From the NCBI GenBank assembly GCA_910587825.1, contig CAJUNJ010000006.1, forward strand, positions 34,732-98,731: 64,000 bases of DNA, given 5' to 3'. Position numbers and translations under genes: made by a program. The notes under the pieces were generated by a model. It searched no databases and was not told the origin of the DNA. It was given only the letters and a program-made list of their open reading frames with translations. Numbering within the stretch: the stretch's first letter is position 1; the number at the start of each line of letters is the position of its first letter. Shown here one piece after another: positions 7,504-25,158 of the stretch. This DNA comes from an uncultured Christensenellaceae bacterium (GTDB lineage: Bacteria > Bacillota > Clostridia > Christensenellales > Borkfalkiaceae).

Positions 7504-9618
7504 ATGAAATACAAATTTTTCACGAGGGGTCTTTTAGCGGTTCTGGGCTTGATGTGCGCAGTTTGCTTTGCGTTGGGGCTACATTTTACCGAGACGGCTT
7601 TTGCTGCCGATGGCGACCGGATAGACATAGAAAGTTATACCCTTACGCTTGACGTAAACGAATTTACATATTCGGGTTTGGAAATTAAACCGACAGCGAC
7701 CGTAAATAACGGCACGGCAAACCTTGTTGAGGGAACTGATTATACTATTTCGTACGAAAACAACGTAGAAGCGGGCACGGCAACCGTCAAAGCAGAGGGT
7801 AAGGGTGATTATACCGGCACTTTATCCGCACAGTTCACGATAAATCCCGCTACCGATAACGCCTGGCAGAGAAGTGATATTGACTCGGACGTGATTTTCT
7901 ACGGTTCGTACAATCCCGAAGTTCCTGCTTTTACCGTTTGGGCGAAGTACGGTTCCGAAAATGCAATTTTCAAATTTTACGACGGCGACAATAAAGAAAT
8001 TTCCGCCGCCGATCTTGCCACGGCAGATGCCGGCGAATATAAGGTAACGGCTCAGATAGCCGCAACCGGCAGTTATAATGCAATAGAAGAAATATTGACG
8101 GACACTTTCAGGATTTATCCCGCAAGAAATAACTGGACGCAGGCGCCCAAGGTTGTTGAATGGGAGTACGGTAAGTTCGACGCAACCGTCAACCTGTTTA
8201 TGGGTGTTGCCGAACACGGCGACGTCAGGTTCACGATATCTAACCAGAATGAAACTTTTATCAGAGATTTTACCGTTAACGAAGGTGTCGTTACAAACCA
8301 AAATTACGTAAAAATTCTTTCGGATGAACTTACCGCCGGAAAATACACGCTTAGCGCAACTGTCAACGGAGGAAATAACTATCAGGATATACCTGCTACT
8401 CAGGTAGAATTCGAAGTAAGGCAGACTTCGAACGACTGGATGACCTTTCCCGACGTCGTCGAATGGCAGTACGGAAATTATAACAAGGACACCAACCTGT
8501 TTTTAGCTTCCGTAAATTACGGCACGGTGTGGTTCAAAGTCAAAACTGCGGAAGACGGTGAAGACTTAACAAGTGAATTTACCGCGGTAAACGGAATTAT
8601 ACAGGAAGAAGACGGCGAAATTTCAAACGTGCTTTCCAAGTTTGAAAAGGGCAAATATTATGTCAGCGTGCGCGTGGACGTGGGCGACGCCAACCGCGAA
8701 GAGATACACGCAACGGGTTTTGAGTTCGACGTTATTCAAGCCGCGAACGGCTGGCAGGCGTCACCCAACGTAATTGCGTGGGAGTACGGCGGATATAACC
8801 CCAACGTCAATTTGATAATAGGTACGCCTTTGCACGGTACGGCAAAGTTCGTTATAACCGACGGGGAAAATAATCTGACAAGAGAATTTTCACTTTTTGA
8901 AGGCATTATAGACGAGGCGGACAACGGCGACGTTTTGGCAATTATTAAGAATCTGCACGCGGGCGATTACTATCTTGTCGCCACTGTCGCTTCGGACGAA
9001 AACGGCAATTATTCGGCTATAGAAGGTCAGACGCCCTTGCAGTTTACGGTAAATCAGGCGGTCAACGATTGGAAAGTTACGCCCAGCATAGAAAGCTGGG
9101 TAAAGGGCAAATATAACGCGGAAGTCAATTTCGTCACTGCGGAAGCCGAGCACGGCGTTGTCGATTACGTCATTTATAAGACTACGGACGAAGAAAGCAT
9201 TATTTATCAGGTTAGTAACGGAGAAGTAATTGTCGACAATCTTGCACAGGCGGGAGTGGGTTATTATACGTTGAAAGCGACCGTTGCGGCTACGGACGAT
9301 TTCTCGGGCGTGGAAAGGACGTTTACGTTCAACGTCTTTGCGCAGGGACTGCCCTGGTGGGCGATTGTAATTATCGTCGTCGGTGCTTTGGGCATAACCG
9401 CGCTTGTGTTCTTCATTCTTCACCAGAAAGGCGTATTACAGATGCTTACCGAAAAGGTGATAGTTGCTATGCGCACCAAGATGACCGTTGACGCGACGAT
9501 TGCGGCTGTAAGGGCAAACAAGGTTGCGGAGGCGGCGAAACGTTCTGTTGCGGCGGCCGAAGAGGAAGAAAGGCGCAAAGCCGAACAAGACAAAAACGAC
9601 GGAAATTTAAACCAATAA
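7504..9618 (+). CDS. cell-surface protein with signal peptide, MBG/Ig-like domain, five tandem ~100-aa repeats, C-terminal TM anchor and charged tail
   Basis: The RBS is AGAGGT. The signal-like N-terminus is LLAVLGLMCAVCFALG. An MBG-type module (YSGLEIKPT...GTDYTISYENNVEAGTATVKAEGKGDYTG) follows. The repeats share N(N/D/G)W...P.V..WEYG.(Y/F)N..VNL. The C-terminal TM is WWAIVIIVVGALGITALVFFIL. Confidence 0.8.
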   Translation: MKYKFFTRGLLAVLGLMCAVCFALGLHFTETAFAADGDRIDIESYTLTLDVNEFTYSGLEIKPTATVNNGTANLVEGTDYTISYENNVEAGTATVKAEGKGDYTGTLSAQFTINPATDNAWQRSDIDSDVIFYGSYNPEVPAFTVWAKYGSENAIFKFYDGDNKEISAADLATADAGEYKVTAQIAATGSYNAIEEILTDTFRIYPARNNWTQAPKVVEWEYGKFDATVNLFMGVAEHGDVRFTISNQNETFIRDFTVNEGVVTNQNYVKILSDELTAGKYTLSATVNGGNNYQDIPATQVEFEVRQTSNDWMTFPDVVEWQYGNYNKDTNLFLASVNYGTVWFKVKTAEDGEDLTSEFTAVNGIIQEEDGEISNVLSKFEKGKYYVSVRVDVGDANREEIHATGFEFDVIQAANGWQASPNVIAWEYGGYNPNVNLIIGTPLHGTAKFVITDGENNLTREFSLFEGIIDEADNGDVLAIIKNLHAGDYYLVATVASDENGNYSAIEGQTPLQFTVNQAVNDWKVTPSIESWVKGKYNAEVNFVTAEAEHGVVDYVIYKTTDEESIIYQVSNGEVIVDNLAQAGVGYYTLKATVAATDDFSGVERTFTFNVFAQGLPWWAIVIIVVGALGITALVFFILHQKGVLQMLTEKVIVAMRTKMTVDATIAAVRANKVAEAAKRSVAAAEEEERRKAEQDKNDGNLNQ

Positions 9619-9906: not shown

Positions 9907-9967
9907 TTAAAACACCTTAAAATTGCTTGTAATTTTTATTCTGATTATATATAATAATTAAGAAATT

Positions 9968-10042
9968 GGGGTGTCGCCAAGCGGTAAGGCAACGGACTCT
10001 GACTCCGTCATTCGTTGGTTCAAATCCAGCTACCCCAGCCAA
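9968..10042 (+). tRNA. tRNA-Gln (anticodon CUG), CCA encoded
   Basis: Hand-folded cloverleaf. The acceptor stem is TGGGGTG/TACCCCA, the D arm GCC-AAGCGGTAA-GGC, and the anticodon arm ACGGA-CTCTGAC-TCCGT (CTG in the centre). The T arm is GTTGG-TTCAAAT-CCAGC, with discriminator G and CCA. Total length is 75 nt. Confidence 0.9.
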
Positions 10043-10102
10043 AAAGCCTTTTTTTCGTGTGTTTTTAACCGAAATTCACGAAGAAAAGGTCTTTTTTTAT
10101 GC
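9998..10102 (+). repeat. attL: left copy of the ~105-bp direct repeat (3' 45 nt of tRNA-Gln plus ~60 nt downstream)
   Basis: CTCTGACTCCGTCATTCGTTGGTTCAAATCCAGCTACCCCAGCCAAAAAGCC...GGTCTTTTTTTATGC recurs at 25052-25158 with 3 differences. Confidence 0.85.
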
Positions 10103-10129: not shown

Positions 10130-10939
10130 CTATTCCGTAATGAACTTAACCTTGTTCATCTGCCTAATCATAAAGTCATCTTTGTAATGTACGTAAGTTT
10201 TACCGACAAGCCGTTCGGGGCATACTGATGCAAAGGTGTGCCGCAGATTGTAAAAGGTTACGCTTGCATCATCGAATATCTTTTTAAACAAGTCTAAACT
10301 CTTCGGATAAGACATTGAAAAGGTTATCGGCTCGTCAAAGTTTAAATATTCCCGTGCTTGCTTCGGTATGGGAATTTTTTTATACTCAATTTTACCGCCT
10401 TTGCGCTTACGGTTACGACAAATCAAAAAACCATTTTCAAATCTTGCTTCTTTGTCCAGTTCGCACGGACGCAAACCGAAGAAGTAAAGCACGTAAGCTC
10501 CCTGACGTATTCTATCGTATTTCGGGTCTTTAATCTTGTTGAAGAATGTGTGTATTTTTTCGGGAGATAAATCGCCCCTGCTTTCGCGTTCGGCTCTTTT
10601 AAAAGGAAGTAGAGTAACGGGGTTATGATTAATGATACCGCTTGCAATAGCGTATTTAAAAGTTTGATTTAACACGCTGCGCAACTCTTCGTACATTCTG
10701 GGAGCGTCGGCAAAGTTATGTAGAATCCTGTCAATATCAGATGTCCGAATAGCTGAAATTTCAATATTGCCTAAGTCATTTAAAATAAACCGCTCGCCAA
10801 GACTTTTATAATCTCTGCAAGTTCCTTCCGAAATTTGTCCTTTTTTGTATTCAAGCCATTCGGTGAATACAGCAGTAAAATCAAATTTAAAAACCGAAGG
10901 AAGTTTAGGCGTATCAATTATGGCAAGCGGAATCGCCAT
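10130..10939 (-). CDS. int: tyrosine site-specific integrase (short, 269 aa)
   Basis: It has a core-binding-type N-terminus and catalytic-domain landmarks GLRPCEL (Arg I), NLRHTFAS (Arg II/His) and KTYVHY (candidate Tyr). It lies 88 nt from the tRNA end, reading toward it. Confidence 0.75.
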   Translation of the reverse strand: MAIPLAIIDTPKLPSVFKFDFTAVFTEWLEYKKGQISEGTCRDYKSLGERFILNDLGNIEISAIRTSDIDRILHNFADAPRMYEELRSVLNQTFKYAIASGIINHNPVTLLPFKRAERESRGDLSPEKIHTFFNKIKDPKYDRIRQGAYVLYFFGLRPCELDKEARFENGFLICRNRKRKGGKIEYKKIPIPKQAREYLNFDEPITFSMSYPKSLDLFKKIFDDASVTFYNLRHTFASVCPERLVGKTYVHYKDDFMIRQMNKVKFITE

Positions 10940-11032
10940 AGTTTTAGACTGTTTGGAAATAGACCCGCTGAAAATCGGTCAGCAGTCGCCCGCGCAGACT
11001 TCGCGATTGCTTATAAAATTCTTAAACGAAAC

Positions 11033-11384
11033 AATGGCAAAATTTCGGTTTTTGCAATACGTACGGCGGCGTTGGATATTCGAGTGCGCAGAAGGGGGAC
11101 AAATGCTGAGATTGCAGTTCGCCGATGACAGCGGAGAAGAAACTTATCTTGTAACCAATAAAAGCATTATGGGCGACATCAAGCGGGTGCGCTCAATGCT
11201 TTCTGAAAGGATATTGTTTTTCCACAGCGACGTGAACGTTAATACTATTCAACTAATCGAAGATATTGAAAATTACGTGTTTGACGACAAGACGGGCGAC
11301 ATAAAAAAACAGCAGCGCGACGATACAATCGACAGTTTAGAGTACGCGACGAAATTATATTACGACGCGCCCGTTGCCGCTTAA
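11033..11384 (+). pseudogene. C-terminal remnant of a phage terminase large subunit
   Basis: ...IEDIENYVFDDKTGDIKKQQRDDTIDSLEYATKLY resembles the end of the terminase nuclease domain (Y.wD...kp.k..DD..DalrYa). There is no ATPase half, and the upstream part of ORF 10845-11384 overlaps int. Confidence 0.5.
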
Positions 11385-12036: not shown

Positions 12037-12384
12037 TCAGGCATTGGCTGGCGGCACGGCGCGTAAAGCGATAATCTCTTTTTCAACGTCCTTTTTCTTT
12101 TTGGGAATAGGCTTGTCCGTTGCCTTTTCAACCGCTTGTGTAAGTTCTGTAAGTTCGGCTTGCTTGCGTTCTGTCTGTTCGTCGATTTCCGAACCTCGCT
12201 GTTTGGCGGTTTCAACAATCTTTTTTGCCTTGTATTCTGCCGTATCAAGATGTACCGCCTGACTGTTTGGCTTGCCTCTGTCAAGTTCGTATTTTTCCCC
12301 GACTTTCTTCCATATTTCCGTCTGCAACTGCGAAAGCTTTTTGTTGAGAATCGGTATTAGCTCGGCGCAACTTCGGCGTTGCAA
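12037..12384 (-). pseudogene. coiled-coil C-terminal fragment of a frameshift-decayed gene (possibly mobilisation/recombination-type tail)
   Basis: The TTG-initiated ORF reads ...HLDTAEYKAKKIVETAKQRGSEIDEQTERKQAELTELTQ. The 160 nt upstream reads on in a second frame (TEPVTLDKIRSDFPFITGYLRAENSVLEGVNLNELYAYIKDKQSELQGQN...), which itself abuts ORF 12547-12753 in a third frame. Confidence 0.3.
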
Positions 12385-13277: not shown

Positions 13278-13422
13278 AAGGGTATCATACGAACTCTATC
13301 GTATAAGTTTATTATATCATAAATTTTATAGATGTCAAGAGAAAACAAACATTTGTTTATATTATTTTTTTGTATCTTATTGTCTATTTTATAATTAAAG
13401 TGTCGAATTTCAAATAAGTAAA

Positions 13423-13446
13423 CCGCCGACGGAGTCCCGTCGGCGG
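13423..13446 (-). terminator. terminator hairpin downstream of fic
   Basis: CCGCCGACGG-agtc-CCGTCGGCGG, followed by a T-rich stretch on the minus strand. Confidence 0.6.
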
Positions 13447-13468
13447 CTGGCTGGCTATTTTAACCTTT

Positions 13469-14323
13469 TTAATCTTCTGTTTCGTAATAGTAGGAATAGT
13501 CTATACCTTTCATAAACATTTCACGGTTGTCAATTTCGTCTGTAAGCGCACTGCTGATAAGTGCAAGAATATCGGTATAATCCATAGGACTTTTCTGCAT
13601 TGCTGTAAGATACGCCCGCTTGTCTATCTTGCTCCAATCTACGCATTTGCGCAAATTCTTTTTCAAAATCAGGTCAAGCCAGATTCTCGTGCTTCTGCCG
13701 TTGCCTTCCATAAATGGATGAGCGACATTCATTTCTACATACTTCTTCACAATGTTTTCAATTGTATCTTCCGGCATCTTGTCAATGATTGCAAGATTTT
13801 CTTTCAGGTACATTGACGGGGCAAACGCAAATCCGCCTTTTGCAATGTTCAAGCCGCGAATTTTACCCGCAAAATCGTAAAGCCCGCCGAAAATAAATCC
13901 GTGAATTTGCTGTAAACCTTTCGTAGTACCTACTTCGATTTCGTCTATCAAGCCGTTTTCAAAGAGTTCGTAAGCCTTTTGTTTGCTCTTTTCGTCTAAT
14001 GTGCTTCCGATTCCTTTTACCCATCTGGAAAAGTTCTCTTTGTTTTTTGCAGGTATGAGCGCAGTAATAAGGGTAACGCCGTTTTCGTCCACGACGTCTG
14101 TAAGGTAGGACTTTCCGTCGTTTGCCTTTAATTTCAGTTGTTTGCAAATTGCAATCAACTGAGTATTTCGGCGTTTCATCGTAGCCCAATAAACACGTGG
14201 ATTATTACTTTTTGTCAACGCCTGCGAAATGTCCATAGCGCAAAACCACCATTTGGAAGTATCGTCATCCCAAACGGCTCTCACGGGAATATCTTCAAAA
14301 AATCTGATAGACGTCTTTATCAT
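13469..14323 (-). CDS. Fic-domain protein (AMPylase-type motif) with Bro-N-like N-terminal domain
   Basis: It carries the canonical Fic motif [12 protein letters not shown] (HxFx[D/E]GNGRxxR). The N-terminus [31 protein letters not shown] resembles Bro-N/antirepressor domains. Confidence 0.85.
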
Positions 14324-14423
14324 GCTAATTCAATCCGTGTGCTTTTTCTCTATTCTACCACAAAAAATAGATTCTTGCAATCTGTTCAAACGCATTTCCA
14401 CAGAAGATGTTTTTCTGGTTTTA

Positions 14424-14453
14424 TTGACAATAGACAATAAAGTATGCTATAAT
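14424..14453 (+). promoter_or_regulatory. strong extended -10 promoter at the head of the XRE/R-M operon
   Basis: TTGACA (14424-14429), an 18-nt spacer and TGcTATAAT (14445-14453). A tandem GACAATA GACAATA overlaps the -35 box. Confidence 0.65.
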
Positions 14454-14477
14454 ATGTTATAATTTGATAGGTGTATT

Positions 14478-14681
14478 ATGGAATTCTCAAAATTCTGCCT
14501 TGAAACAAGGCTAAAGCTCAATTTAAGTCAGGAAATGTTGGCACGGAAGCTCGACGTTTCTTTTGCAACAATCAACCGCTGGGAGAACGGCAAAGCCCTT
14601 CCCCAGAAACTGACACTATACCGTTTTGAAAAGTTCTGCGAAGAAAACGGTATAGAATTTGTCACAAACTTGACTCTTTGA
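14478..14681 (+). CDS. XRE-family helix-turn-helix regulator (controller-protein-like position)
   Basis: LSQEMLARKLDVSFATINRWENGKALP is a classic HTH_3 signature. It is the first gene of the operon and is divergent from fic. Confidence 0.85.
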   Translation: MEFSKFCLETRLKLNLSQEMLARKLDVSFATINRWENGKALPQKLTLYRFEKFCEENGIEFVTNLTL

Positions 14682-14706
14682 AAATTTTACGTGCGAGGAA
14701 ATTATT

Positions 14707-15540
14707 ATGGCTACGAGTAAGAAACTTGAAATTATATACTACAACGGACAACCTGACGGTGTGCGTTCTGTCCGTCGTCATCTGTCTACAATTACTACTT
14801 ATGTAATACCGCGTCCTTTGCTATCGGAAGCAAAGAAGATTTCGGGTATTACAAGACCCGGCATCTATTATCTAATTAATGAGAACGATGAAAATAAAAT
14901 TGCACAAATCTATATTGGGCAGACGCGCAACGGTGTAACACGCCTTGATGACCATAACCGTTCCAAAGATTTCTGGAATAAGGCGATTGTGTTCCTTGCC
15001 GACAACAAGACCTTTTCTCTTGATATGATAAGCGGGCTTGAAGAATACGCCATTATTAAAGCTCACGAAGCAAAGCGTTATAAGGTCGAAAATTCAGTTA
15101 AACCTAAATATGAGATTGACGAATACGACCTTCCCTCTATCGAAGAAGTATATGACGAAATTCAATTCGTCATGGCAACGCTCGGATATAAGATGAATAA
15201 TGCAAAAAAGAACGAAGATCAACGAGAAGTACTCCACACTACTCGTAACGGAATTACAGCTTATGGGGTATATACCGGAGATAAATTTGAAGTACTTGAA
15301 GATTCCGAAGTCGATATGAAAACCAAATGCCTTGAATGGCAAAAAATTCAACTTCAAAGACAAAACGCTTTAAAAAATGGTGAAATTGTTGAAAAAAATG
15401 GAAAATACATATTAAAGGTTTCAGTGTCATTTTCTTCACCTAGTGCTGCCGCAGCTTTCATTTTGGGGCACAATGCCAATGGTTGGATATCGTGGAAAAA
15501 CAAAGATGGAAAAACATTAGACGAAATTTACAGAAAATAA
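14707..15540 (+). CDS. GIY-YIG nuclease domain protein with C-terminal DUF4357-like domain
   Basis: The GIY-YIG landmarks are GIYYL...QIYIGQT...R(LDDH)...LEEYAI...VEN. The C-terminal SPSAAAAFILGHNANGWISWK matches my memory of DUF4357. Confidence 0.7.
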   Translation: MATSKKLEIIYYNGQPDGVRSVRRHLSTITTYVIPRPLLSEAKKISGITRPGIYYLINENDENKIAQIYIGQTRNGVTRLDDHNRSKDFWNKAIVFLADNKTFSLDMISGLEEYAIIKAHEAKRYKVENSVKPKYEIDEYDLPSIEEVYDEIQFVMATLGYKMNNAKKNEDQREVLHTTRNGITAYGVYTGDKFEVLEDSEVDMKTKCLEWQKIQLQRQNALKNGEIVEKNGKYILKVSVSFSSPSAAAAFILGHNANGWISWKNKDGKTLDEIYRK

Positions 15541-15586
15541 ATTAAACAGAATTATTCCGCTTATACAGAAAAACGAAAAACATAAT

Positions 15587-16882
15587 ATGGAAGAGAATTT
15601 ATTTAACAAAATTTTAACCCGAGTTCACGCAGATGAAATTACCACTTCAAATTTCTATAAAGACGAAGAGTTTGAGAATTTTATTGAAATTCTTAACGAA
15701 GACATAGGAAAATTTAAAAATTATACTTATGACGGCAAAGCTCAAGACTTGATATTTAAGGGATTAAAAAAGTTTAGTCCCCTAGCTACTAAATATGGTC
15801 AATTTCTAAAGTATTTGGAAGTTGAATTCGATAAGTTAGTTGTACCTTGCATCATTTTAATACCTCTGAATTTTTTAAATGATAATGTTTTGAAATCTGA
15901 TTTATCTCTCACCGACAACATAAAACTATTTAAAACTGAGAAAGCAAATACAGTTCAAAAGCTAAAAATATCAAAGAAAAAGTCTGCTTTAGAAAAATAT
16001 GTTGAAACAACTATATATGCAAAATTACTGAAAGAACATATTTTACTTGCAAAAGATAAAAACTTTTTTAACTTTCCTATATTAGCGATTAATATTAACT
16101 GTATCAATTATCAGGCTGACAATGAATCTTCCATCATAACAGAAGCTACATATAGTTTTATCAGAATGTTAGATTATTCTTCGCCCCGAGATGGATATGG
16201 GTGGGGAATATTGGATCAAGATAAACTTCCGACTAGGTTGTATGGTGTTTATTATAACGAAGTTGGAACATCTCCAAAAGCTCCGTACAATAACGGATAT
16301 GGTTATTCAGGGCGTTTTAAGTTTTCGCCCTATTTGGATATTAACTCAACTGAATTTATTAAACAAATTGACCTTTTCCGTGATTTGCTTGTTAAATTTT
16401 GTAATAATTGTTTTTTAGATAAACGAAAGATAGACAAAAAGACAGTCTTAAAAATTGAAAAATGGCAAAAAGCAGTTCTTTTATATAATACCGCTTATGA
16501 GTTTGCATCAATAGAAAAATATGATGAATGCCTTTTACAGCAAATTATAATTTTAGAATTATTGTTTCTTGGAAATTCGGAACATAACAAGCGGGTTGCA
16601 TTATGCGATAAAATAACTCCTTTCATGGAGAATAATTACGGCGCAGATTCCGACGCCATAAAAGAAGTTATAGAAAATGCTTATAAAAAGAGAAACAAGT
16701 TTGTACACGAAGGGCAAAGCATTTGTTACAACTTTTCTACATTTAAGTCGTTAAACAGCCATCAAGGTCTTATACGAGGCATGAAGCCTTTTGCTTATGG
16801 TGGCGGAGATATCCCGATAGATAACATTAAACTTCTGAAAAATTTATTTGTTCTTATAGGCAAAATTATTACGAAGTATTGA
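15587..16882 (+). CDS. 431-aa protein with C-terminal HEPN-like domain (Rx4H), N-terminal region unassignable
   Basis: The C-terminal ~120 aa is predicted helical and contains IILELLFLG and AYKKRNKFVHEG (R-N-K-F-V-H = Rx4H, as in Apea-/DUF4145-type HEPN). No other motif was recognised. Confidence 0.5.
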   Translation: MEENLFNKILTRVHADEITTSNFYKDEEFENFIEILNEDIGKFKNYTYDGKAQDLIFKGLKKFSPLATKYGQFLKYLEVEFDKLVVPCIILIPLNFLNDNVLKSDLSLTDNIKLFKTEKANTVQKLKISKKKSALEKYVETTIYAKLLKEHILLAKDKNFFNFPILAININCINYQADNESSIITEATYSFIRMLDYSSPRDGYGWGILDQDKLPTRLYGVYYNEVGTSPKAPYNNGYGYSGRFKFSPYLDINSTEFIKQIDLFRDLLVKFCNNCFLDKRKIDKKTVLKIEKWQKAVLLYNTAYEFASIEKYDECLLQQIIILELLFLGNSEHNKRVALCDKITPFMENNYGADSDAIKEVIENAYKKRNKFVHEGQSICYNFSTFKSLNSHQGLIRGMKPFAYGGGDIPIDNIKLLKNLFVLIGKIITKY

Positions 16883-16914
16883 CATTACAGAAATAAAAAT
16901 TAGGAGAAATTATT

Positions 16915-18546
16915 ATGGCAAAGGATAAAGAAAAAACAGTATCTTTGGAAGATGTTCTGTGGGATTGCAGAGTCTCTTTGCGTGGCGTTGGCAGTCTTGA
17001 TAAAAACAGAGACGCTGTTATCAGTTTAGTATTCTTGAAATTTGCAGGAGATAAATTCAAAAAATGCCGTGAACAGATTATTAAAGAATATGGCGAGATT
17101 CCCGCTTTCGTGGAAAAGCCTTCGTTTTATAATGCTGAAAATGTATTCTATCTGAAAGAAACCGCTCGTTGGACGTATATAGTAGACCACGCAAGCCAAA
17201 ACGATATCGCCGTAATAATCGACCAAGCAATGGCTGATATCGAGAATGACAATCCCTCTCTTGCCGGTGCTTTATCAAAAAATTTATTCTCCACGCTCGG
17301 GGCAGATAAAAACAAAATTAAAAGTTTGATAGACAGTGTAAACCGTATTGACGAAAAGCGGTTTCACGAAGAAGATTTGATAGGCAGAGTTTACGAATAC
17401 TTTCTGCAAATTTATGCTGCGTCCGGAACGAAAGAAGACGGTGAATTTTATACTCCCGCTAGTATTGTAAAACTTATAGCCGAAATGATAGAACCTTATG
17501 ACGGCGTTGTTTATGACCCCTGTTGCGGAAGCGGCGGTATGTTTGTTCAGTCAATGAAGTTTGTAGACAAGCATAATGGAAACCGCGATAAAATATCGGT
17601 TATCGGACAGGAAAGCGTACAAGAAACTTGGCGTCTCTGCAAAATGAATCTCGCTATCCGCGGCATTGCGCATAACCTTGGTAAAACCAACGCTTCAACG
17701 TTTACTGACGACCAGCACAAAGATAAAAAAGTTGACTATATAATGGCAAACCCTCCGTTCAACCTTAAAAATTGGAGAACGGAAAACGAACTTATAAATG
17801 ACGCCCGTTGGAGCGGTTATTGTGAAACGGCACCTCGCGTCTCTAATGCTAACTATGCTTGGATTCTGCACATGATTTCCAAGCTTGATGTAAATCACGG
17901 AATTGCCGGCTTCTTACTTGCCAACGGTGCATTAGGCGATTCAGACGATGCTGAAATCCGCAAGAACATATTACTTAAAGATAAAGTTGAAGCGATAATT
18001 GTTTTACCCCGAGATATGTTCTATACAACTGATATATCCGTTACACTTTGGATTATCAACATGAATAAACGCGCAGGAACAGTAAACGGCAGGAAAGTTC
18101 GTGACAGAAGCCACGAAGTATTGTTTATGGATTTGCGCACTTGGGATAACAATATAGAAGAAATCACTATTGATAAAGGCAAGAAAAAGAAAAAAACCGT
18201 ACTTACTGACGGCCAGATTGCAAAAATAAAAGAAATATATACAAATTGGCAAAGCAAAGATAGAACGCTTTATCGGGATATACCAGAACTCTGTAAATCG
18301 GTAAAAGTAAACAACAGCGATTTAACAGACGAAGAGATTAAAAACAACGTTGTTACTATTGAAAAGCAGAACTATGCTCTTATGCCAAGCAAATATATCG
18401 AGTTTATCGACCACGACTTGGATATCGATTATCACACTGAAATGCAACGTATTCAAAAAGAAATGTCAGAAGTCATAAAGCAAGAACGAGAATCACAAAA
18501 ATTATTGTCTGCCGCTTTCAAGGGGATTGGCTATGGCATTGACTAA
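16915..18546 (+). CDS. hsdM: type I restriction-modification system, N6-adenine DNA methyltransferase subunit
   Basis: It has an HsdM N-terminal region, the AdoMet motif VYDPCCGSGGMF and the catalytic NPPFN. Confidence 0.95.
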   Translation: MAKDKEKTVSLEDVLWDCRVSLRGVGSLDKNRDAVISLVFLKFAGDKFKKCREQIIKEYGEIPAFVEKPSFYNAENVFYLKETARWTYIVDHASQNDIAVIIDQAMADIENDNPSLAGALSKNLFSTLGADKNKIKSLIDSVNRIDEKRFHEEDLIGRVYEYFLQIYAASGTKEDGEFYTPASIVKLIAEMIEPYDGVVYDPCCGSGGMFVQSMKFVDKHNGNRDKISVIGQESVQETWRLCKMNLAIRGIAHNLGKTNASTFTDDQHKDKKVDYIMANPPFNLKNWRTENELINDARWSGYCETAPRVSNANYAWILHMISKLDVNHGIAGFLLANGALGDSDDAEIRKNILLKDKVEAIIVLPRDMFYTTDISVTLWIINMNKRAGTVNGRKVRDRSHEVLFMDLRTWDNNIEEITIDKGKKKKKTVLTDGQIAKIKEIYTNWQSKDRTLYRDIPELCKSVKVNNSDLTDEEIKNNVVTIEKQNYALMPSKYIEFIDHDLDIDYHTEMQRIQKEMSEVIKQERESQKLLSAAFKGIGYGID

Positions 18547-19648
18547 ATATAAATTAGGGGAACTTATTGAACTTTCTGAAGAAAGAAATTTTCATAGGCA
18601 ATTTACATTGCATTCTGTAAGAGGTATAGCTACAAAAAAAGAATTTATTGAAACAAAAGCAGATATGGACGGTGTAAGTTTAAATAGTTATAAAATCGTT
18701 TATCCAAACTTTTTTGCTTATGTTCCTGACACATCTCGAAGAGGTGATAAGATTTCATTGTCTATAAATAAATCCAATAATGTTTATTTAGTATCGTCTA
18801 TATCGACTGTATTTAAAATAAGTAACCACCATATTTTACTCCCAGATTATTTATTTATGTACTTCAATCGTCCTGAATTTGATAGATACTCTCGCTTTAA
18901 TTCTTGGGGGTCGGCAAGAGAAACTTTTTCATGGGAAGAAATGTGCGATATTGATATTGTCCTACCTCCTATTGAAATTCAGAAAAAGTATGTTGATGTT
19001 TACAATTCAATGGTTGAAAATCAAACAGCATACGAAAAAGGTCTTGAAGATTTAAAACTTGTTTGCGACGGCTTTATAGAAGACTTACGCCGAAAAATGC
19101 TTTGTGAGAAGATTGGGCAATATTTGGAATACCACGATATAAGAAATTCAGACAATAAATGCACTAATGTAAAGGGTGTAACAGTATATAAGAATTTTAG
19201 AGAACCCACGTCAAAAGTAAATAGAGATGAGTTGCGCGGATATAAAATTGTAAAGCCTTCTTGGATTACTTTTGTGCAAACAACTCACAACGAAAAAGTA
19301 TTTGCGTATGCCTTTAATAACACAAATGAAGATATAGTTGTATCTTCGGTAAACGAGGTGTTTTCCACAAACACAAAAAAACTTTTACCGCAATATTTGT
19401 GTATGTTTTTCAATAGAAAAGAATTTGACCGATATGCGCGATTTCATTCTTGGGGATCGGCGCGAGAGACTTTTACTTGGAATGATTTGATTGAAGTTGC
19501 TATTCCTATACCCGATATAGATATTCAGCAATCCATTGTTGATATTTATAATCAATACATAACACGAAAAGAAATCAACGAAAAACTAAAAACACAAATC
19601 AAAGACCTTTGTCCTATTCTAATCAAGGGTTCTTTGCAAGAAGCATAA
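18527..19648 (+). CDS. hsdS: type I R-M specificity subunit
   Basis: It overlaps hsdM by 20 nt. It has two target-recognition halves, each ending in a conserved repeat (RPEFDRYSRFNSWGSARETFSWEEM...IEIQKKYVDVYN and RKEFDRYARFHSWGSARETFTWNDL...IDIQQSIVDIYN). Confidence 0.9.
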   Translation: MAMALTKYKLGELIELSEERNFHRQFTLHSVRGIATKKEFIETKADMDGVSLNSYKIVYPNFFAYVPDTSRRGDKISLSINKSNNVYLVSSISTVFKISNHHILLPDYLFMYFNRPEFDRYSRFNSWGSARETFSWEEMCDIDIVLPPIEIQKKYVDVYNSMVENQTAYEKGLEDLKLVCDGFIEDLRRKMLCEKIGQYLEYHDIRNSDNKCTNVKGVTVYKNFREPTSKVNRDELRGYKIVKPSWITFVQTTHNEKVFAYAFNNTNEDIVVSSVNEVFSTNTKKLLPQYLCMFFNRKEFDRYARFHSWGSARETFTWNDLIEVAIPIPDIDIQQSIVDIYNQYITRKEINEKLKTQIKDLCPILIKGSLQEA

Positions 19649-19662
19649 GGAGATAAAATATT

Positions 19663-20430
19663 ATGGATTTTGAAAAATTAAATTTATTGATTGCCGAAGC
19701 CGATTGGTTAATAGACGAAGGTGTAACATCAGGTGATAGCAGATTTCAAGCATGGAAAATGAAAGTTTCACGATTTTTAATTAAGACCTTTGGTGAAAAA
19801 AGCCATGAATATGAGTATTTTCAACACACATCCTTTTCTTTAGGGGTATACACATTATCAACGCCAGATAGTGCTTTTGTAGAGGCTTGTACTAATGGAT
19901 TACGTATTACAAGAGATGTGTTGTCTACTTATCTCGACGAAATGGAAGAAGAACTGCCAAAAAGAAATATCAAAGCTAAGGTAAGCACTAATTTCTCAAA
20001 AGTTTTTATTGTGCATGGACACGATGGAGAATTAAAAGAAGCAGTTGCACGCTTAATTGAGCAACAAAGTATCGAAACGATTATATTATCTAATAAAACA
20101 AATGAAGGCAAAACAATTATAGAAAAAATCGAACATTACAGTGATGTGAGTGCGGCTATATGTTTATTTACCGCAGATGATAAAGGGAAAGCCAAATCGG
20201 AAAAATCATTGAGTGACCGAGCAAGACAAAATGTGGTATTCGAAGCGGGATATTTTATGGGGAAACTTGGTCGAAATCGTATGGTTATTGTGGCTGAAAG
20301 TAATGTCGAACTTCCTTCCGATATGAGCGGAATGGTTTACACTAATAAATCCGATTGGAAAGTCGAAGTATTAAAGGAATTGAAATCGATGGGTTTTGCT
20401 ATCGATTTCAATAAACTTTTTGAGGAATAA
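19663..20430 (+). CDS. TIR-like domain protein (Cap12 / Pycsar-effector type), with ~110-aa unassigned N-terminal domain
   Basis: KVFIVHGHDGELKEAVARLIE...TIIEKIEHYSDVSAAICLFTADD...RARQNVVFEAGYFMGKLGRNRMVIV...ELPSDMSGMVY matches the prokaryotic TIR-like family pattern (VFIVHGhD ... ARqNVifElGyF ... PSDl.G). It includes the conserved Glu. Confidence 0.7.
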   Translation: MDFEKLNLLIAEADWLIDEGVTSGDSRFQAWKMKVSRFLIKTFGEKSHEYEYFQHTSFSLGVYTLSTPDSAFVEACTNGLRITRDVLSTYLDEMEEELPKRNIKAKVSTNFSKVFIVHGHDGELKEAVARLIEQQSIETIILSNKTNEGKTIIEKIEHYSDVSAAICLFTADDKGKAKSEKSLSDRARQNVVFEAGYFMGKLGRNRMVIVAESNVELPSDMSGMVYTNKSDWKVEVLKELKSMGFAIDFNKLFEE

Positions 20431-20433
20431 CAT

Positions 20434-23400
20434 ATGACCTACCATTTTACCAAAGGACAATTTAATGAATCTGAGCTTGAAAGTGCAATAATAGAATTGT
20501 TCAAAAATCAAGAATATGATTATATTCACGGAGATAGTATTCACCGTAAATATGAGGACGTATTACTTGAAGATGATTTGCGTGCTTATTTGTCTGAACG
20601 CTATGCGAAAGAAAGCCTTACCGAAAGTGAAGTGCAAATGATTATCAATCGCATAAAGCTTATTCCTTCAACTCCTCTTTATGCGGGAAACCGCGAAACG
20701 TTTTGGCTTATCAACGAAGGTTTTGACCTTGTAAGGGATGACCCTGATAAAATTGCTTTACATGTCGACTTTATTAATTTTGATTCTCCTAAGCAAAACA
20801 AATTCAAGGTTGTAAACCAATACTACGTTAAGGGCGAGCATTTACGTTGTCCCGATATGCTAGTGTTTATCAACGGTATACCTATGGCAATTTGGGAATT
20901 CAAATCTGCTATAAAAGAAGATACTACTATTTACGACGCATGGAAACAAATTAATATAAGGTACAACCGCGATATTTCTAAACTGACTAAATACTGCTTT
21001 CTTTCCGTTATTTCTGACGGTGCGAATACAAGGCTTGGAACTATCTTTACTCCTTATAAATTTTATTTTTCTTGGAATAAAGCAAACGAACAAGATACAG
21101 TTTCAAACGGTATAAGCTCACTTTTTACTATGGTAGAAGGCGTATTCGCAAAAGAACGCATTATTTCTATCCTGCGTGATTTTGTTTTCTACCCCGATAA
21201 TAGCGACAAGGAAGAAGCTATCATTTGCCGTTATCCGCAATATTTTGCTGCAAATAAAATGCTACAAAGTTTAAAGAATCACAAAAAGCCGTCCGGAGAC
21301 GGCAAGGGTGGAATTTATTTCGGGGCTACCGGATGCGGGAAAACATATACTATGTTGTTCTTGTGCAGAATGTTAGCACACAGAGACAGCGCAGCTTTTG
21401 GCAATCCCACTTCACTTATCTTGGTTGACCGCGAAGACTTAGATAATCAAACATCGGAGTTGTTTGAAAGAGCAAAAAGATTTTTAAGCGATAAAAATGT
21501 TCGCAGCATTGAAACCAGAAAGGATCTGCATGATACGTTAATTGTTAATCAAAGCGGCGGCGTCTATATAACTACTATTCAGAAATTCTGTGAAGATACA
21601 GGTCTTTTATCGGAGAGAAATAATATTTTCTGCATTTCCGATGAGGCGCACCGTACACAATTGAGTGTTGGCAATAAACTTAAAAAGACTGAAAAAGGTC
21701 TAGTAAATACATACGGATTTGCACAATATCTGCGTTGGAGTTTTCCTAACGCTACCTATTGCGGATTTACAGGTACGCCTATTGACGAGGCTATTGCGGT
21801 ATTTGGAGATATTGTTGATAGCTACACTATGAAAGAAGCCAGTGATGACGGTATAACTGTCCGCATTTCCTATGAACCCCGTCTCGCGCGGGTTATTCTA
21901 TCAGAGGAACAGGCGAAAGAGATTCAAATGTATTACGATAAATGTGCTGAAGAAGGTTCAACGCCCGAACAGATTGAAGAAAGTCAAAAGGCTATGTCCA
22001 AAATTTCTGCTATCCTAGGACATCCCGATGTATTAAAACGGTTGGCAAAAGATATTGTAGAGCATTACGAGAATCTTTGTAATGAAAAACCTAATATAGT
22101 TCAAAAAGCAATGATTGTTTGTGCCGATAGAATTCTGGCATATAAATTATTGCAAGAGATTTTGAAAATCAGAAATGATTGGGGTAAAGCAAGGAAAGCT
22201 GAAGACGAAAGCAAGCTTACAAAAGAGCAATTGGACAAGCTTAAGGCATTGCCTAAAATTAACCTTGTTGCAACGCAAGGCAAAGATGATGAGAAAAAGC
22301 TTTACGACCTTTGCGGTTCTAAGGCTTATCGGCAAATGCTTGATAAACAATTCAAAGATGACAATTCCAATTTCAAAATCGCTGTTGTTGTCGATATGTG
22401 GATTACAGGCTTTGATGTCCCTTCGCTTTCTGTTATGTACATAAATAAACCTTTACAGAAACACACGCTTATCCAAACTATTTCAAGAGTCAATAGGGTT
22501 TTTGAAGGCAAAGAAAGAGGACTTGTAGTTGATTATATTGGCATTAAAAACGATATGTTGAAAGCCGTTAAAAAATACGGAAGCCCGCAGGAAAGTCCTA
22601 TTGACGAAATTAATATTTCATTAGGAATATTCCGAAATCATCTGTCAATGTTGGATGATTTGATGATAGGTTTCAATGCAACCCGCTATTATACTGGTAA
22701 TTCTCTTGAGCGCTTATATTGCTTAAATGATGCAGCCGAATATGTACAGCTAAATAAGGAAATGCAAACGAGATTTATGGGGCTTTCAAAACGTTTGAAA
22801 GGGGCTTATCAGATTGTATTCCCTACAGGAGAACTAACTCAAATCGAAATATCCAAGGCACAATTTTATCTTGCTATTCGTTCAATTATTTACAAGCAAA
22901 CTATCGGCGATGCGCCTGACGCAGAAGTAATGAATAGCATTGTAGAGGAAATGGTAAAACAAGCAATAACATGTACTGGCGTTGAAAATATAATTGACGA
23001 GAATAAATCTGTCGACTTATTCAGTGAAGAATTTTTAAAAGAGCTGGATGCAGTTAAAATGCCTATTACAAAGTTCAACGCATTAATTAAGTTATTGCGA
23101 AAAGCTATTGTTAGTTATGGCAAAGTCAACAAAGTTAAATCGTTAGAATTTGACGAACGCTTAAAGCGCGTTGTTGATGCTTACAACAACAGAGATAAAC
23201 TTACATTCGCAAGTGAAGTTGTTGCCGATTTTATGGACGATTTGTGTAATCAGCTAATTGATATCTTCAATGACTTGAAAGAAGACAAAACATCTTTTGA
23301 AAAGTTAGGAATTACATTCGAAGAAAAAGTGTTCTACGATATTCTGGTAAAAGTACGCGATACTCACGGTTTTGAATACGAGGATAAAAAATGCGTGTCG

Positions 23401-23601
23401 CTTGCAAAAGAAATCAAAAAGATTGTTGAAGACAAAACACAATATGTCGATTGGTCTACTCGCTCTGATATAAGAAACAAATTAAATAAGGAGTTGACTA
23501 TACTTTTGTATAAAAACGGTTATCCTCCCGAATGGGACGAAGAAGTTTTTGAAAAAGTAATGGAACAAGCTGAGAATTTCAAACGGTACAATGGAGATTA
23601 A
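20434..23601 (+). CDS. hsdR: type I R-M restriction (helicase-nuclease) subunit
   Basis: The 1055-aa protein has an HsdR N-terminal nuclease region, Walker A GATGCGKT, the DEAH box SDEAHRTQ, helicase C-terminal motifs and a type I-specific C-terminal helical domain. Confidence 0.95.
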   Translation: MTYHFTKGQFNESELESAIIELFKNQEYDYIHGDSIHRKYEDVLLEDDLRAYLSERYAKESLTESEVQMIINRIKLIPSTPLYAGNRETFWLINEGFDLVRDDPDKIALHVDFINFDSPKQNKFKVVNQYYVKGEHLRCPDMLVFINGIPMAIWEFKSAIKEDTTIYDAWKQINIRYNRDISKLTKYCFLSVISDGANTRLGTIFTPYKFYFSWNKANEQDTVSNGISSLFTMVEGVFAKERIISILRDFVFYPDNSDKEEAIICRYPQYFAANKMLQSLKNHKKPSGDGKGGIYFGATGCGKTYTMLFLCRMLAHRDSAAFGNPTSLILVDREDLDNQTSELFERAKRFLSDKNVRSIETRKDLHDTLIVNQSGGVYITTIQKFCEDTGLLSERNNIFCISDEAHRTQLSVGNKLKKTEKGLVNTYGFAQYLRWSFPNATYCGFTGTPIDEAIAVFGDIVDSYTMKEASDDGITVRISYEPRLARVILSEEQAKEIQMYYDKCAEEGSTPEQIEESQKAMSKISAILGHPDVLKRLAKDIVEHYENLCNEKPNIVQKAMIVCADRILAYKLLQEILKIRNDWGKARKAEDESKLTKEQLDKLKALPKINLVATQGKDDEKKLYDLCGSKAYRQMLDKQFKDDNSNFKIAVVVDMWITGFDVPSLSVMYINKPLQKHTLIQTISRVNRVFEGKERGLVVDYIGIKNDMLKAVKKYGSPQESPIDEINISLGIFRNHLSMLDDLMIGFNATRYYTGNSLERLYCLNDAAEYVQLNKEMQTRFMGLSKRLKGAYQIVFPTGELTQIEISKAQFYLAIRSIIYKQTIGDAPDAEVMNSIVEEMVKQAITCTGVENIIDENKSVDLFSEEFLKELDAVKMPITKFNALIKLLRKAIVSYGKVNKVKSLEFDERLKRVVDAYNNRDKLTFASEVVADFMDDLCNQLIDIFNDLKEDKTSFEKLGITFEEKVFYDILVKVRDTHGFEYEDKKCVSLAKEIKKIVEDKTQYVDWSTRSDIRNKLNKELTILLYKNGYPPEWDEEVFEKVMEQAENFKRYNGD

Positions 23602-23629
23602 AGATTAATTAATCTTATTTCGATAATTT

Positions 23630-24685
23630 ATGAAACAAAAGAAACTACGGACGGATATACTTTTTCTAATAATTTTTATTATTTGGACAATTATTGCTGC
23701 AACTCTATTTTTTGCCGTTGCAAAAAATGAAAATGCAGATACAGCAATTATCCTTAAAATATTGAAAATCTTAATCGGTATTTTTTATATGCCAGTACCG
23801 TTCTTGCCTTTTGTGTTAATTTATTTACATAAACGCAGTAAAGCAACTGGTGATGGGAAGCCTTTGAGTGTTGAGGCAATGCGTGAAAGTAAAAAACATA
23901 TACCAGAAAAAATTTATAAGTTCTGTTCTTTGACTTCCAAAGGTGAAAATGAAAAGTTAAATAAGAGTAAATTAAAAACTCTTGCAAGCAATGAAATTTG
24001 GCTATCAAGGTGTTCTGATTTGAACGACCCATTTGAAGGAATTAAATTCATTTTACCTGAAAGTAATTTCTCGCAAAACGGGCTACCAGAAGAAATCAAA
24101 AATAGATATAATGTTAAAAATACGGGTGAATTAATCGATTTTTTAAGCAGTTTTAGAGATAAATACTGTCAAACATCCTTTTCTTCTTCGTATAATGATG
24201 TCCAAATGTGGGGTTACTATGCTAATGGGTGTAGAGGTTACTGTGTAGAATATAAAGTATTGGAAAAAGAAATGCTATTTCCAGTATTTTATGTTAATAA
24301 ACGCATAATCCTATCTGGATTATTTAAAAGTGCACGGTATAAGCGGCAATGCTTGAAAAATTTAAAGCAATTGCATAAAAGTCTACGTAGTGTTCCAACA
24401 AAGGAATATGTTCAATATAACTTATATTTGCAATCATTTAAGTACGCCAAATGGCAGTTCGAAAAGGAGATTAGAGCAATTGACATAACAGCACCATATT
24501 ATAAAGGCGGTAATCAGTCTGCAACTAATTTTGGATTACAGCCAACAAAAATTATTGCTGGATACTTGTCGGAGTATATTGAGGAACTAAAACAAATAGC
24601 AATTCAAACAAATATATCATTTTCTATTATGAAACCTAATTTTGAAACAAATAAGTTTGAACTTAAAGAACAAAAGATTTTATAA
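23630..24685 (+). CDS. DUF2971-family protein with two N-terminal transmembrane helices
   Basis: IYKFCSL...IWLSRCSDLNDPFEG and MWGYYANGCRGYCVEY match the DUF2971 signature (YkY.s...fs....fNDPfE ... mWshYa....G.c). The N-terminal TMs are LFLIIFIIWTIIAATLFFAVA and ILIGIFYMPVPFLPFVLIYL. Confidence 0.7.
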   Translation: MKQKKLRTDILFLIIFIIWTIIAATLFFAVAKNENADTAIILKILKILIGIFYMPVPFLPFVLIYLHKRSKATGDGKPLSVEAMRESKKHIPEKIYKFCSLTSKGENEKLNKSKLKTLASNEIWLSRCSDLNDPFEGIKFILPESNFSQNGLPEEIKNRYNVKNTGELIDFLSSFRDKYCQTSFSSSYNDVQMWGYYANGCRGYCVEYKVLEKEMLFPVFYVNKRIILSGLFKSARYKRQCLKNLKQLHKSLRSVPTKEYVQYNLYLQSFKYAKWQFEKEIRAIDITAPYYKGGNQSATNFGLQPTKIIAGYLSEYIEELKQIAIQTNISFSIMKPNFETNKFELKEQKIL

Positions 24686-25051: not shown

Positions 25052-25158
25052 CTCTGACTCCGTCATTCGTTGGTTCAAATCCAGCTACCCCAGTCAAAAA
25101 GCCTTTTTTTCGTGTGTTTTTAACCGAAATTCACGAAGGAAAGGTCTTTTTTTTATGC
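25052..25158 (+). repeat. attR: right copy of the direct repeat (tRNA-Gln 3' half, no CCA, no 5' half)
   Basis: It matches 9998-10102 except for C>T in the CCA, A>G in GAAGAAAAGG and one extra T. Confidence 0.85.

Follow-up and report, generated by a model that had tools for sequence, protein, structure and literature searches.

A candidate sensor-HEPN ribonuclease family in Bacillota defense islands and at the edges of restriction–modification operons

ApeA, an anti-phage system made up of one gene for a HEPN ribonuclease (RNase), proceeds from a ligand pocket to cleavage of the tRNA anticodon and abortive infection, and members of its family are embedded in restriction–modification (R-M) operons of some bacteria (PMC3710099). 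Linkage to R-M was documented for at least 16 HEPN clades in a 2013 survey, and PrrC was proposed to be a second line of defense once restriction has been defeated (PMC3710099). The accessory domain is the sensor in DARNA and DS-11, and these proteins act alone; in the experimentally studied cases among effectors of the DARNA, DS-11, and HEC-08 type, the Rx4-6H residues are required. The PADLOC "PDC" candidates come from a guilt-by-embedding screen of type I R-M, BREX, and DISARM systems (bioRxiv 10.1101/2024.01.29.577857). Here, we describe X, a gene for a 431-amino acid (aa) protein located in a 64,000-nucleotide (nt) stretch of DNA, the whole of which we call the window, from an uncultured Christensenellaceae bacterium (GenBank assembly GCA_910587825.1, contig CAJUNJ010000006.1, positions 34,732 to 98,731). 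X occupies positions 15587..16882 of the forward strand, as read from the open reading frame (ORF) list and the sequence. The reading that we favor, and think on balance probable, is that X is a self-contained, autoinhibited sensor-HEPN RNase, an abortive-infection effector acting alone.

The X family and its predicted domains

The only Rx4-6H string in X is R369-N-K-F-V-H374 (codons at 16691..16708, forward strand, with that of R369 at 16691-16693 and that of H374 at 16706-16708). It lies within residues 365-376, AYKKRNKFVHEG, and its Arg and His are the predicted catalytic residues. By itself, the presence of the string is not above chance, because 30% of shuffled X sequences contain at least one Rx4-6H (mean 0.34). 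Conservation was therefore assessed in 64 aligned homologs with identity down to 23%, and R369-x4-H374 was kept in 64/64, so that the conservation of this single string exceeds chance. A preliminary description of the DNA, made from its letters alone, had let its HEPN-like reading stand or fall with the conservation of this pair, and R369 and H374 were each found in all 64. Ten columns are invariant (K156, R193, G239, L250, N301, E324, R369, H374, G398, and P401), and near-invariant columns include H151, D157, F160, F161, Y189, Y219, Y222, D251, Y304, E305, Y366, E375, and G376; those from H151 to D251 fall in the N-terminal domain defined below. Position 370, directly after the Arg, is Asn in 56 homologs and Ser in 8, and E375 and G376 are kept in 61/64 and 62/64, respectively. 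The acidic residue E324 (codon 16556..16558, forward strand), found in 64/64 homologs, lies in the segment IILELLFLG (residues 321-329). Judged by these alignment columns, the N-terminal part of X is constrained as strongly as the C-terminal part.

X begins with ATG in the ORF list of the window, is separated by 46 nt from the stop of a GIY-YIG/DUF4357 gene at 15540, and ends 32 nt before the start of hsdM at 16915. The coordinates, both gaps, and the motif given in the preliminary description were exact when the ORF list and sequence were reread, and the neighbors that it had named were confirmed with Pfam and PADLOC (GIY-YIG plus DUF4357 upstream and hsdM downstream). No sequence match to the X protein was found in Pfam, NCBIfam, PADLOC, PHROGs, or PDB (phmmer), and there was no Pfam or PADLOC match at E ≤ 1. 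A word-indexed search of 5.8 billion proteins returned 71 homologous clusters of similar length. The X gene is 99.7% identical to its copy in L010, a locus from an uncultured Christensenella metagenome-assembled genome (MAG), with four synonymous and no nonsynonymous differences, and the encoded proteins are identical. This identity makes that species, or a near relative of it, the very probable source of the window. Because of the homologous clusters of like length and this substitution pattern, we take the ORF to be a real gene. An exhaustive HMMER search of 1.84 billion representatives recovered 49 X-family representatives and nothing outside the family, and a C-terminal profile run against the 5.8-billion-protein collection recovered family fragments only. 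The members of this small family are unnamed save one, a "HEPN domain-containing protein" at NCBI. Among 185,579 GTDB species, X is present in 15, all of them Bacillota MAGs (Christensenella, uncultured Clostridia, Ca. Scatosoma, Ca. Caccovivens, Bacilli, and Acholeplasmataceae), and its distribution is patchy across Clostridia, Bacilli, and Acholeplasmataceae. The family was found on one IMG/VR contig and has no PHROG.

An AlphaFold2 model of full-length X, made with the family alignment, had a mean predicted local distance difference test (pLDDT) of 90.9 and a predicted template modeling score (pTM) of 0.92, and the two domains are therefore predicted to form one compact unit; residues 278-431 modeled alone had a pLDDT of 88. 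The model and the conservation define an α/β N-terminal domain that is family-specific (residues 1-277; 15587..16417, forward strand), with predicted strands at residues 86-93, 112-115, 165-172, 218-223, and 238-243. The C-terminal helical domain (residues 278-431; 16418..16879, forward strand) is read as HEPN from the models, its agreement with HEPN anatomy, and weak HEPN matches. Within it, helix 1 (residues 284-308) and helix 2 (residues 312-327), which contains E324, are followed by an inserted helix (residues 335-351), by helix 3 (residues 355-375) ending in R369...H374, by a conserved QG...GMKPF loop (residues 376-410, with Q393, G394, G398, M399, P401, and F402), and by helix 4 (residues 411-430). 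In the described anatomy of HEPN domains, Rx4-6H stands at the end of core helix 3 and runs into the H3-H4 loop, and the conserved acidic residue of many families sits in helix 2 (PMC3710099). The model of X agrees with this layout on both counts: Rx4H closes predicted core helix 3 and leads into loop 376-410, and invariant E324 lies inside the helix at 312-327. A HEPN bundle had been anticipated from the sequence, and a helical bundle with these two features is what was predicted.

Comparisons with HEPN families gave a set of weak matches. A Pfam scan of 45 members matched HEPN_Apea (PF18739) in four (best 4.6 × 10−4), DUF4145 in two, and DUF3644, also a HEPN family, in one. Over the HEPN region, distant members gave values of 0.0055 for HEPN_Apea, 0.016 for DUF4145 spanning helices 1-3 (the overall range for DUF4145 being 0.013-0.016), and 0.0043 for HEPN_RiboL-PSP across 100 residues. 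The top Pfam match of the family consensus was HEPN_Apea at 18 bits, the gathering cutoff being 24.4 bits, and in PADLOC the consensus weakly matched two CARF-HEPN models. It also weakly matched PADLOC PD-T4-6 (4.7 × 10−4), a hint that we leave unexplained and did not use. Against 177,635 distinct PDB sequences, the C-terminal profile matched Ec2ApeA only (E 0.68-0.97; ApeA structures 9hxb/9hxd/9hxi), pairing YkkRnkfvHeG of X with YRTRNLIVHTG of ApeA. Counted along this alignment, R369...H374 lies opposite R502...H507, and R502 is the residue that was mutated as catalytic (ApeA preprint); ILESLF of X and IAIESLI of ApeA also pair, in a weaker and colinear stretch. Alignment of the C-terminal domain with the ApeA HEPN domain by hhalign gave P = 5.1 × 10−4 at a probability of 31%, over 25 columns only and with a thin ApeA profile, and the full-length alignment comprised 24 columns, all at the catalytic motif. 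The ApeA profile was built from full-length IMG/VR genes and is thin because identity among the recovered genes exceeds 86%. These genes (583 aa) lie on eight IMG/VR viral contigs, L029-L036, and have HEPN domains that are 86-100% identical to that of the Ec2ApeA-type copy in L029, which fits carriage by prophage-like elements; a tblastn search for ApeA in plasmids and phages found nothing.

A Foldseek search with the whole X model gave no significant match in PDB or BFVD. With the C-terminal model searched against PDB, HEPN proteins accounted for 9 of the top 50 chains (2hsb, sacsin HEPN, AbiV, ST0689, 4nqf, and Csm6), and the best of them, 2hsb, had E 0.22, probability 0.93, and TM-scores of 0.44/0.51; the remaining chains were generic helical bundles. 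Because all of these weak comparisons point to HEPN, none being significant alone, we regard the C-terminal domain as very probably HEPN. The HEPN-like reading offered from the letters alone is thus supported by the R/H invariance and the predicted fold, every database match being subthreshold, and its wording as "Apea-like/DUF4145-like" was apt: no other Pfam families were touched by as many members as these two, and ApeA is the sole PDB sequence match.

Whether searched as a consensus or as a profile, the N-terminal ~277 residues had no match in any library (Pfam, NCBIfam, PADLOC, PHROGs, PDB, and BFVD), in keeping with the earlier remark that this part resembled nothing nameable. Profile comparison showed no similarity to the N-terminal or Mid domains of ApeA. 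Two sets of matches were dismissed as noise: nucleoside-diphosphate kinases found with the N-terminal part by Foldseek (TM-score ~0.3) and an ephrin found with the full-length profile in PDB (E 1.4). In the retrieved sequences, the N-terminal domain co-occurs with this HEPN domain, the exceptions being short fragments and P0071, encoded on a 2.7-kb contig, in which an acetyltransferase domain is joined to the equivalent of X residues ~140-277 and which ends before the HEPN domain. Because the activating ligand of ApeA is bound in a pocket that lies between its N-terminal domain and its HEPN domain, the N-terminal domain of X may, by analogy, have a sensing or autoinhibitory role.

Some relatives depart from this architecture. 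Two distant members of the family, P0102 (685 aa) and P0105 (484 aa), have a second, C-terminal Abi_2-type HEPN domain with its own motif, RELRNIIMHH and KDLRNLVMHH, respectively, giving two HEPN domains per chain. P0114 is a 150-aa ORF (positions 6001-6453 of L037-L039) consisting of the C-terminal domain of X only, at 81% identity; it keeps the R and H, has Lys in place of E375, and lies ~440 nt 3′ of hsdR, with a 300-aa gene and an Abi_2 gene downstream. Its presence in 176 blocks of the contig collection makes it a common ORF of some gut organism. P0114 is probably an N-terminally truncated remnant of X, or alternatively may be a stand-alone minimal HEPN protein. The X homolog of a Clostridiales MAG (L021, 10096-11167) is probably a pseudogene because it is split into 105-aa and 198-aa pieces; a 2,213-aa ORF follows it.

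Genomic neighborhoods of X

The gene neighborhoods of ~30 distinct X loci were surveyed. Neighbor clustering revealed no universal neighbor, each being found in a minority of loci at most, and no conserved small partner gene. Because no neighbor exceeds a minority and some copies stand alone, the pattern is that of an autonomous cassette of defense islands, favoring the edges of R-M operons. In 8 of the ~30 loci, type I R-M genes are found no more than two genes from X, which is 5′ of hsdM in the window/L010, L012, and L013, 5′ of hsdR in the L001 group, and 3′ of hsdR in L019, L046, L057, and L058. X is at the outer edge of the operon in all eight and never between hsd genes. The gap to hsdM is 32 nt in the window and 5 nt in both L012 and L013, that to hsdR is 22 nt in L001, and the X-hsdM junction is preserved between copies that are only 39-41% identical. 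The linkage to hsdM and type I R-M raised in the preliminary description is therefore frequent but not obligatory. Other methyltransferases or type II/III R-M genes are found within three genes of X in the L007 group, L015, L025, and L026.

At three independent loci, a Pycsar cyclase and PycTM pair is found no more than 30-40 nt from X: in L017 (8719-11371) the pair is upstream of X, and in L040/L062 (7974-10531) and L051 (2714-5276) it is downstream; L040/L062 and L051 are diverged copies of one arrangement. This proximity may be no more than defense-island clustering. Elsewhere, the neighbors comprise a CD-NTase (after X in L022), a reverse transcriptase plus Cas9, a Gabija-like OLD/UvrD pair, GmrSD, a YobI ATPase, a SMEK/STAND NTPase, KAP NTPases, Ymh HEPN, Abi_2 HEPN, AbiH, and AbiJ-NTD proteins, HipA, a DpnI_C-T5orf172 protein, and type I, II, and III R-M, and some loci adjoin recombinases or integrases. 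The GIY-YIG/DUF4357 gene stands next to X in the window and the near-identical L010 only, and a partnership between the two was rejected as unsupported for that reason. A toxin–antitoxin reading (HepT/MntA or AbiF-type with an RNA antitoxin) was likewise rejected, because there is no conserved small neighbor, neither tandem repeats nor Rfam elements were found near X, and the upstream gap is only 46 nt.

The X cluster of the window is on a 15-kb genomic island integrated at tRNA-Gln, as concluded from a repeat that starts inside the tRNA gene, an adjacent integrase remnant, and deviant GC content. The tRNA-Gln(CTG) gene, the integration site, is at 9967..10041 on the forward strand (ARAGORN and Rfam). 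A 102-nt direct repeat brackets a 15-kb low-GC stretch: the left, att-like copy (9997..10098) begins within the tRNA, and the right copy (25052..25153) marks the end of the low-GC island, the two being 98% identical and 15,055 nt apart. GC content is 0.33-0.39 within the island versus 0.45-0.51 downstream. The mobility genes of the island are remnants only: an integrase with SAM-like and central domains and no catalytic-domain match (10130..10939, reverse strand), a terminase C-terminal fragment (10845-11384), and a Mob_Pre fragment (12037-12384, reverse strand). Just upstream of tRNA-Gln and outside the island, positions 7504-9618 encode a 704-aa protein with a signal-peptide-like start, internal repetition, a C-terminal membrane-spanning segment, and a charged tail.

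X is the third of eight tightly spaced, codirectional genes on the forward strand. They are preceded by a sigma-70-like promoter-like site, TTGACA-18-TATAAT with TG, that matches at 12/12 positions (14424..14453, forward strand; consensus scan only), beyond which a Bro-N plus Fic protein, PDC-S04, is encoded divergently (13469..14323, reverse strand; Pfam and PADLOC). The first gene of the cluster encodes a 67-aa Xre-type helix–turn–helix (HTH) protein (14478..14681; Pfam HTH_3, 3 × 10−13) that may be its controller or repressor, and the second the GIY-YIG plus DUF4357 protein, PDC-S14 (14707..15540; Pfam DUF4357, 1.2 × 10−21; PADLOC PDC-S14, 6 × 10−73). X is followed by hsdM for the type I R-M methyltransferase (16915..18546; N6_Mtase, 2.6 × 10−83, and HsdM_N), hsdS for the specificity subunit (18527..19648; Methylase_S), a gene for a CAP12/Pycsar-type TIR protein, PDC-S35, between hsdS and hsdR (19663..20430; Pfam and PADLOC), hsdR for the restriction subunit (20434..23601; HSDR_N, SWI2_SNF2, and T1RH-like_C), and last a gene for a 351-aa DUF2971-like protein, PDC-S31 (23630..24685; Pfam and PADLOC). 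Close homologs of this DUF2971-like protein are encoded near X at the 3′ end of R-M clusters in L019 (12238-13293) and L026 (11525-12580), the L019 copy matching that of the window at 2 × 10−166, and a larger DUF2971 protein is encoded ~3 kb upstream of X in L001. Small HTH genes head the X clusters of L026, L012, and L001, as in the window.

The window and L010 share two blocks that are ~96% identical (window 13412-19092 and 20439-23602) and differ in the second half of hsdS, the hsdS-hsdR cassette, and both flanks. The boundary at 19092 lies within hsdS, and the replaced part corresponds to window 19092-20439 versus L010 13506-17170. The slot between hsdS and hsdR holds the TIR gene in the window, an AbiJ_NTD3-kinase (415 aa) plus a KAP NTPase (620 aa) in L010, AbiJ_NTD4 plus KAP in L012, and a DUF4062/TIR-like protein plus a TRADD-associated TM protein in L013. 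The neighbors of X in the shared block are 92.6-97.2% identical between the window and L010. A tract at ~15200-16950, which runs from the end of the GIY-YIG gene through the whole of X into the opening few dozen bases of hsdM, has 4 mismatches in ~1,750 nt, all of them synonymous changes in X, and is flanked by divergence of 7-8% on the left and 3-7% on the right. This low-divergence tract around X suggests recent recombination.

Proposed mechanism and alternative explanations

The results above show the X gene, the conservation of its product, a predicted topology, the genomic contexts, and the island; beyond these, we infer RNase activity, dimerization, N-terminal sensing, and a defense phenotype, as follows. 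The C-terminal ~150 residues would form a metal-independent HEPN-type endoribonuclease domain, with an active site (R369, H374, and helix-2 E324) that would be completed by dimerization, as in other HEPN enzymes. The N-terminal domain would pack tightly on the HEPN domain, probably holding it inactive, and would sense an infection cue, which may be a small molecule, a nucleic acid, or a phage protein. Activated X would then cleave RNA, most likely tRNA or other translation RNAs, leading to cell arrest, and the gene would travel as an independent cassette among defense islands. The earlier suggestion of a second suicide effector in the operon is reasonable as a reading, but X behaves as an independent cassette and not as a partner of its neighbors. 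We advance more tentatively, and with more doubt than conviction, the bolder proposal that the N-terminal domain, which is modeled with high confidence and has a dozen invariant residues but no relative in the libraries, is a new infection sensor controlling a HEPN RNase; X would then be an unrecognized single-gene immune system of gut Bacillota with a new trigger. In that case, the trigger could be failure of a neighboring system or a nucleotide-derived signal, possibilities suggested by the recurrence of X at R-M operon edges and next to Pycsar pairs.

X might instead be a PrrC-like guard of R-M that would be held inactive on the R-M complex and freed as an RNase when a phage anti-restriction protein disables that complex, and we treat this as a minor possibility. 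Type I R-M genes adjoin X in 8 of the ~30 loci, very short gaps of 5-32 nt are seen, the junction of X with hsdM persists at 39-41% identity, the truncated remnant also lies 3′ of hsdR, another methyltransferase or a type II/III R-M system is found no more than three genes away in four more loci, and there is the precedent of PrrC and at least 16 R-M-linked HEPN clades (PMC3710099). However, ~18 of the 30 loci have no adjacent R-M gene, some copies of X are solitary among housekeeping genes, and the R-M systems beside X vary in type and gene order. X can be at either outer edge of the operon but never takes the PrrC position between hsdS and hsdR, it is without a PrrC-type regulatory ABC-ATPase domain, and some adjacency is expected because R-M genes are the commonest defense genes. 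A connection of X with cyclic-nucleotide signaling, in which it might, for example, modulate Pycsar-type systems or supply them with an additional effector, could be drawn from the Pycsar cyclase and PycTM genes within 30-40 nt of X at three independent loci, the CAP12/Pycsar-type TIR gene in the window operon, and the CD-NTase gene after X in L022. We consider it highly improbable, given that such loci make up only ~10% of the total, that each Pycsar pair already has its own effector, that the window encodes no cyclase, and that X has no recognizable nucleotide-binding domain.

Several points weigh against the sensor-RNase reading that we favor. No HEPN sequence model or structure matches X at the usual significance thresholds; Foldseek with the C-terminal model gave no match at E ≤ 10−3, and generic bundles (FliT, MIT domains, and designed proteins) score like HEPN. 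Four-helix bundles are a common fold. The X copies of L011, L014, L028, and L053 lie among housekeeping genes with no recognizable defense neighbor, and the invariant polar residues of the N-terminal domain could equally be a second catalytic site. The subthreshold matches, the unrelated bundles at like Foldseek scores, and the frequency of Rx4-6H in shuffled sequences would all be accommodated if the C-terminal domain were an unrelated helical bundle with an R...H pair conserved for other reasons. That seems to us quite improbable, as four HEPN Pfam families and the CARF-HEPN PADLOC models agree, ApeA is the sole PDB sequence match with its catalytic residues in register, HEPN proteins are enriched in the Foldseek results, and the positions of the motif and the acidic residue in the predicted helices fit the HEPN description. 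It is also unlikely, in our estimate, that X is HEPN-like without being an RNase effector of phage defense, whether because its C terminus is binding or regulatory and activity resides in the N-terminal domain (invariant H151/K156/D157/R193/D251) or because it serves a mobile element as an addiction toxin or in RNA processing. The N-terminal domain is as rich in invariant polar residues as the C-terminal domain, non-catalytic HEPN domains exist (PMC3710099), the window copy is on an island with decayed mobility genes, and some loci are beside recombinases or integrases. On the other hand, non-catalytic HEPN domains usually lose Rx4-6H, whereas X keeps the R, the H, and the helix-2 Glu invariant; no conserved antitoxin-like neighbor, RNA repeat, or Rfam element is found at X; and its neighbors are mostly defense genes.

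If the sensor-RNase reading is true, X represents a further family of single-protein immune effectors that join a sensor to a HEPN RNase, from poorly studied gut anaerobes, and it carries a sensor domain that current libraries cannot place. It is a small, defined candidate with clear point mutants (R369, H374, and E324 versus K156, R193, and D251) and a case of a defense gene found beside R-M operons and not inside them; the locus shows type I R-M operons as docking sites for exchangeable defense cassettes. The X family and its N-terminal domain are new. Systems of this kind are already known, since R-M-linked HEPN genes were catalogued in 2013 and single-protein HEPN defense systems are numerous, and X does not open a long-standing question.

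Comparison with described systems

ApeA and X are both single polypeptides in which one or more non-catalytic N-terminal regions would precede a C-terminal HEPN domain. The Y-x-x-R-N-x-x-V-H-x-G catalytic helix aligns between them, R369 to R502, as does "IxxES L" of helix 2, and both have extra sequence between core helices. The ApeA used for comparison is a 583-aa, predominantly α-helical protein with N-terminal, Mid, and split HEPN domains, whereas X has 431 aa and an α/β N-terminal domain. Membership of X in the ApeA family was rejected: the HEPN_Apea score of 18 bits is below 24.4 bits, the PADLOC ApeA model matched neither the X consensus nor distant members, and only the motif aligns. 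The ApeA mechanism is nevertheless, by analogy, the best working model for X.

PrrC, the anticodon nuclease of the EcoprrI type I R-M locus, is like X in some loci in that the gene for a HEPN-type RNase, a predicted one in the case of X, is linked to hsdM/S/R. PrrC has an N-terminal ABC-ATPase, is encoded between hsdS and hsdR, and is almost always inside type I R-M, whereas X is without an ATPase domain, is at the outer edge of the operon, and in most loci has no R-M neighbors; P-loop/ABC families matched neither X nor the family consensus, and in the window the position between hsdS and hsdR is held by the TIR protein and not by X. With DARNA/PD-T7-3, DS-11 (CBS-HEPN), and HEC-08 (DUF3644 HEPN plus Zn fingers), X would share the fusion of a HEPN RNase to an accessory domain. 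These proteins have no detectable sequence similarity to X, their sensor domains are unrelated, and the HEPN domain is N-terminal in DARNA and HEC-08 and C-terminal in X. To our knowledge, none of the three is known from the Clostridia, Bacilli, and Acholeplasmataceae lineages that carry X.

The PDC candidates resemble X in genomic habitat and in cassette-like exchange, which it shares with PDC-S04, PDC-S14, PDC-S35, and PDC-S31 of the window. In contrast to them, X has no PADLOC model, and in all type I loci seen it lies outside the hsd genes and not between them; screens based on embedding may miss X because of this position. By analogy, X would operate in the manner of ApeA, DARNA, or DS-11 while being a member of none of these families.

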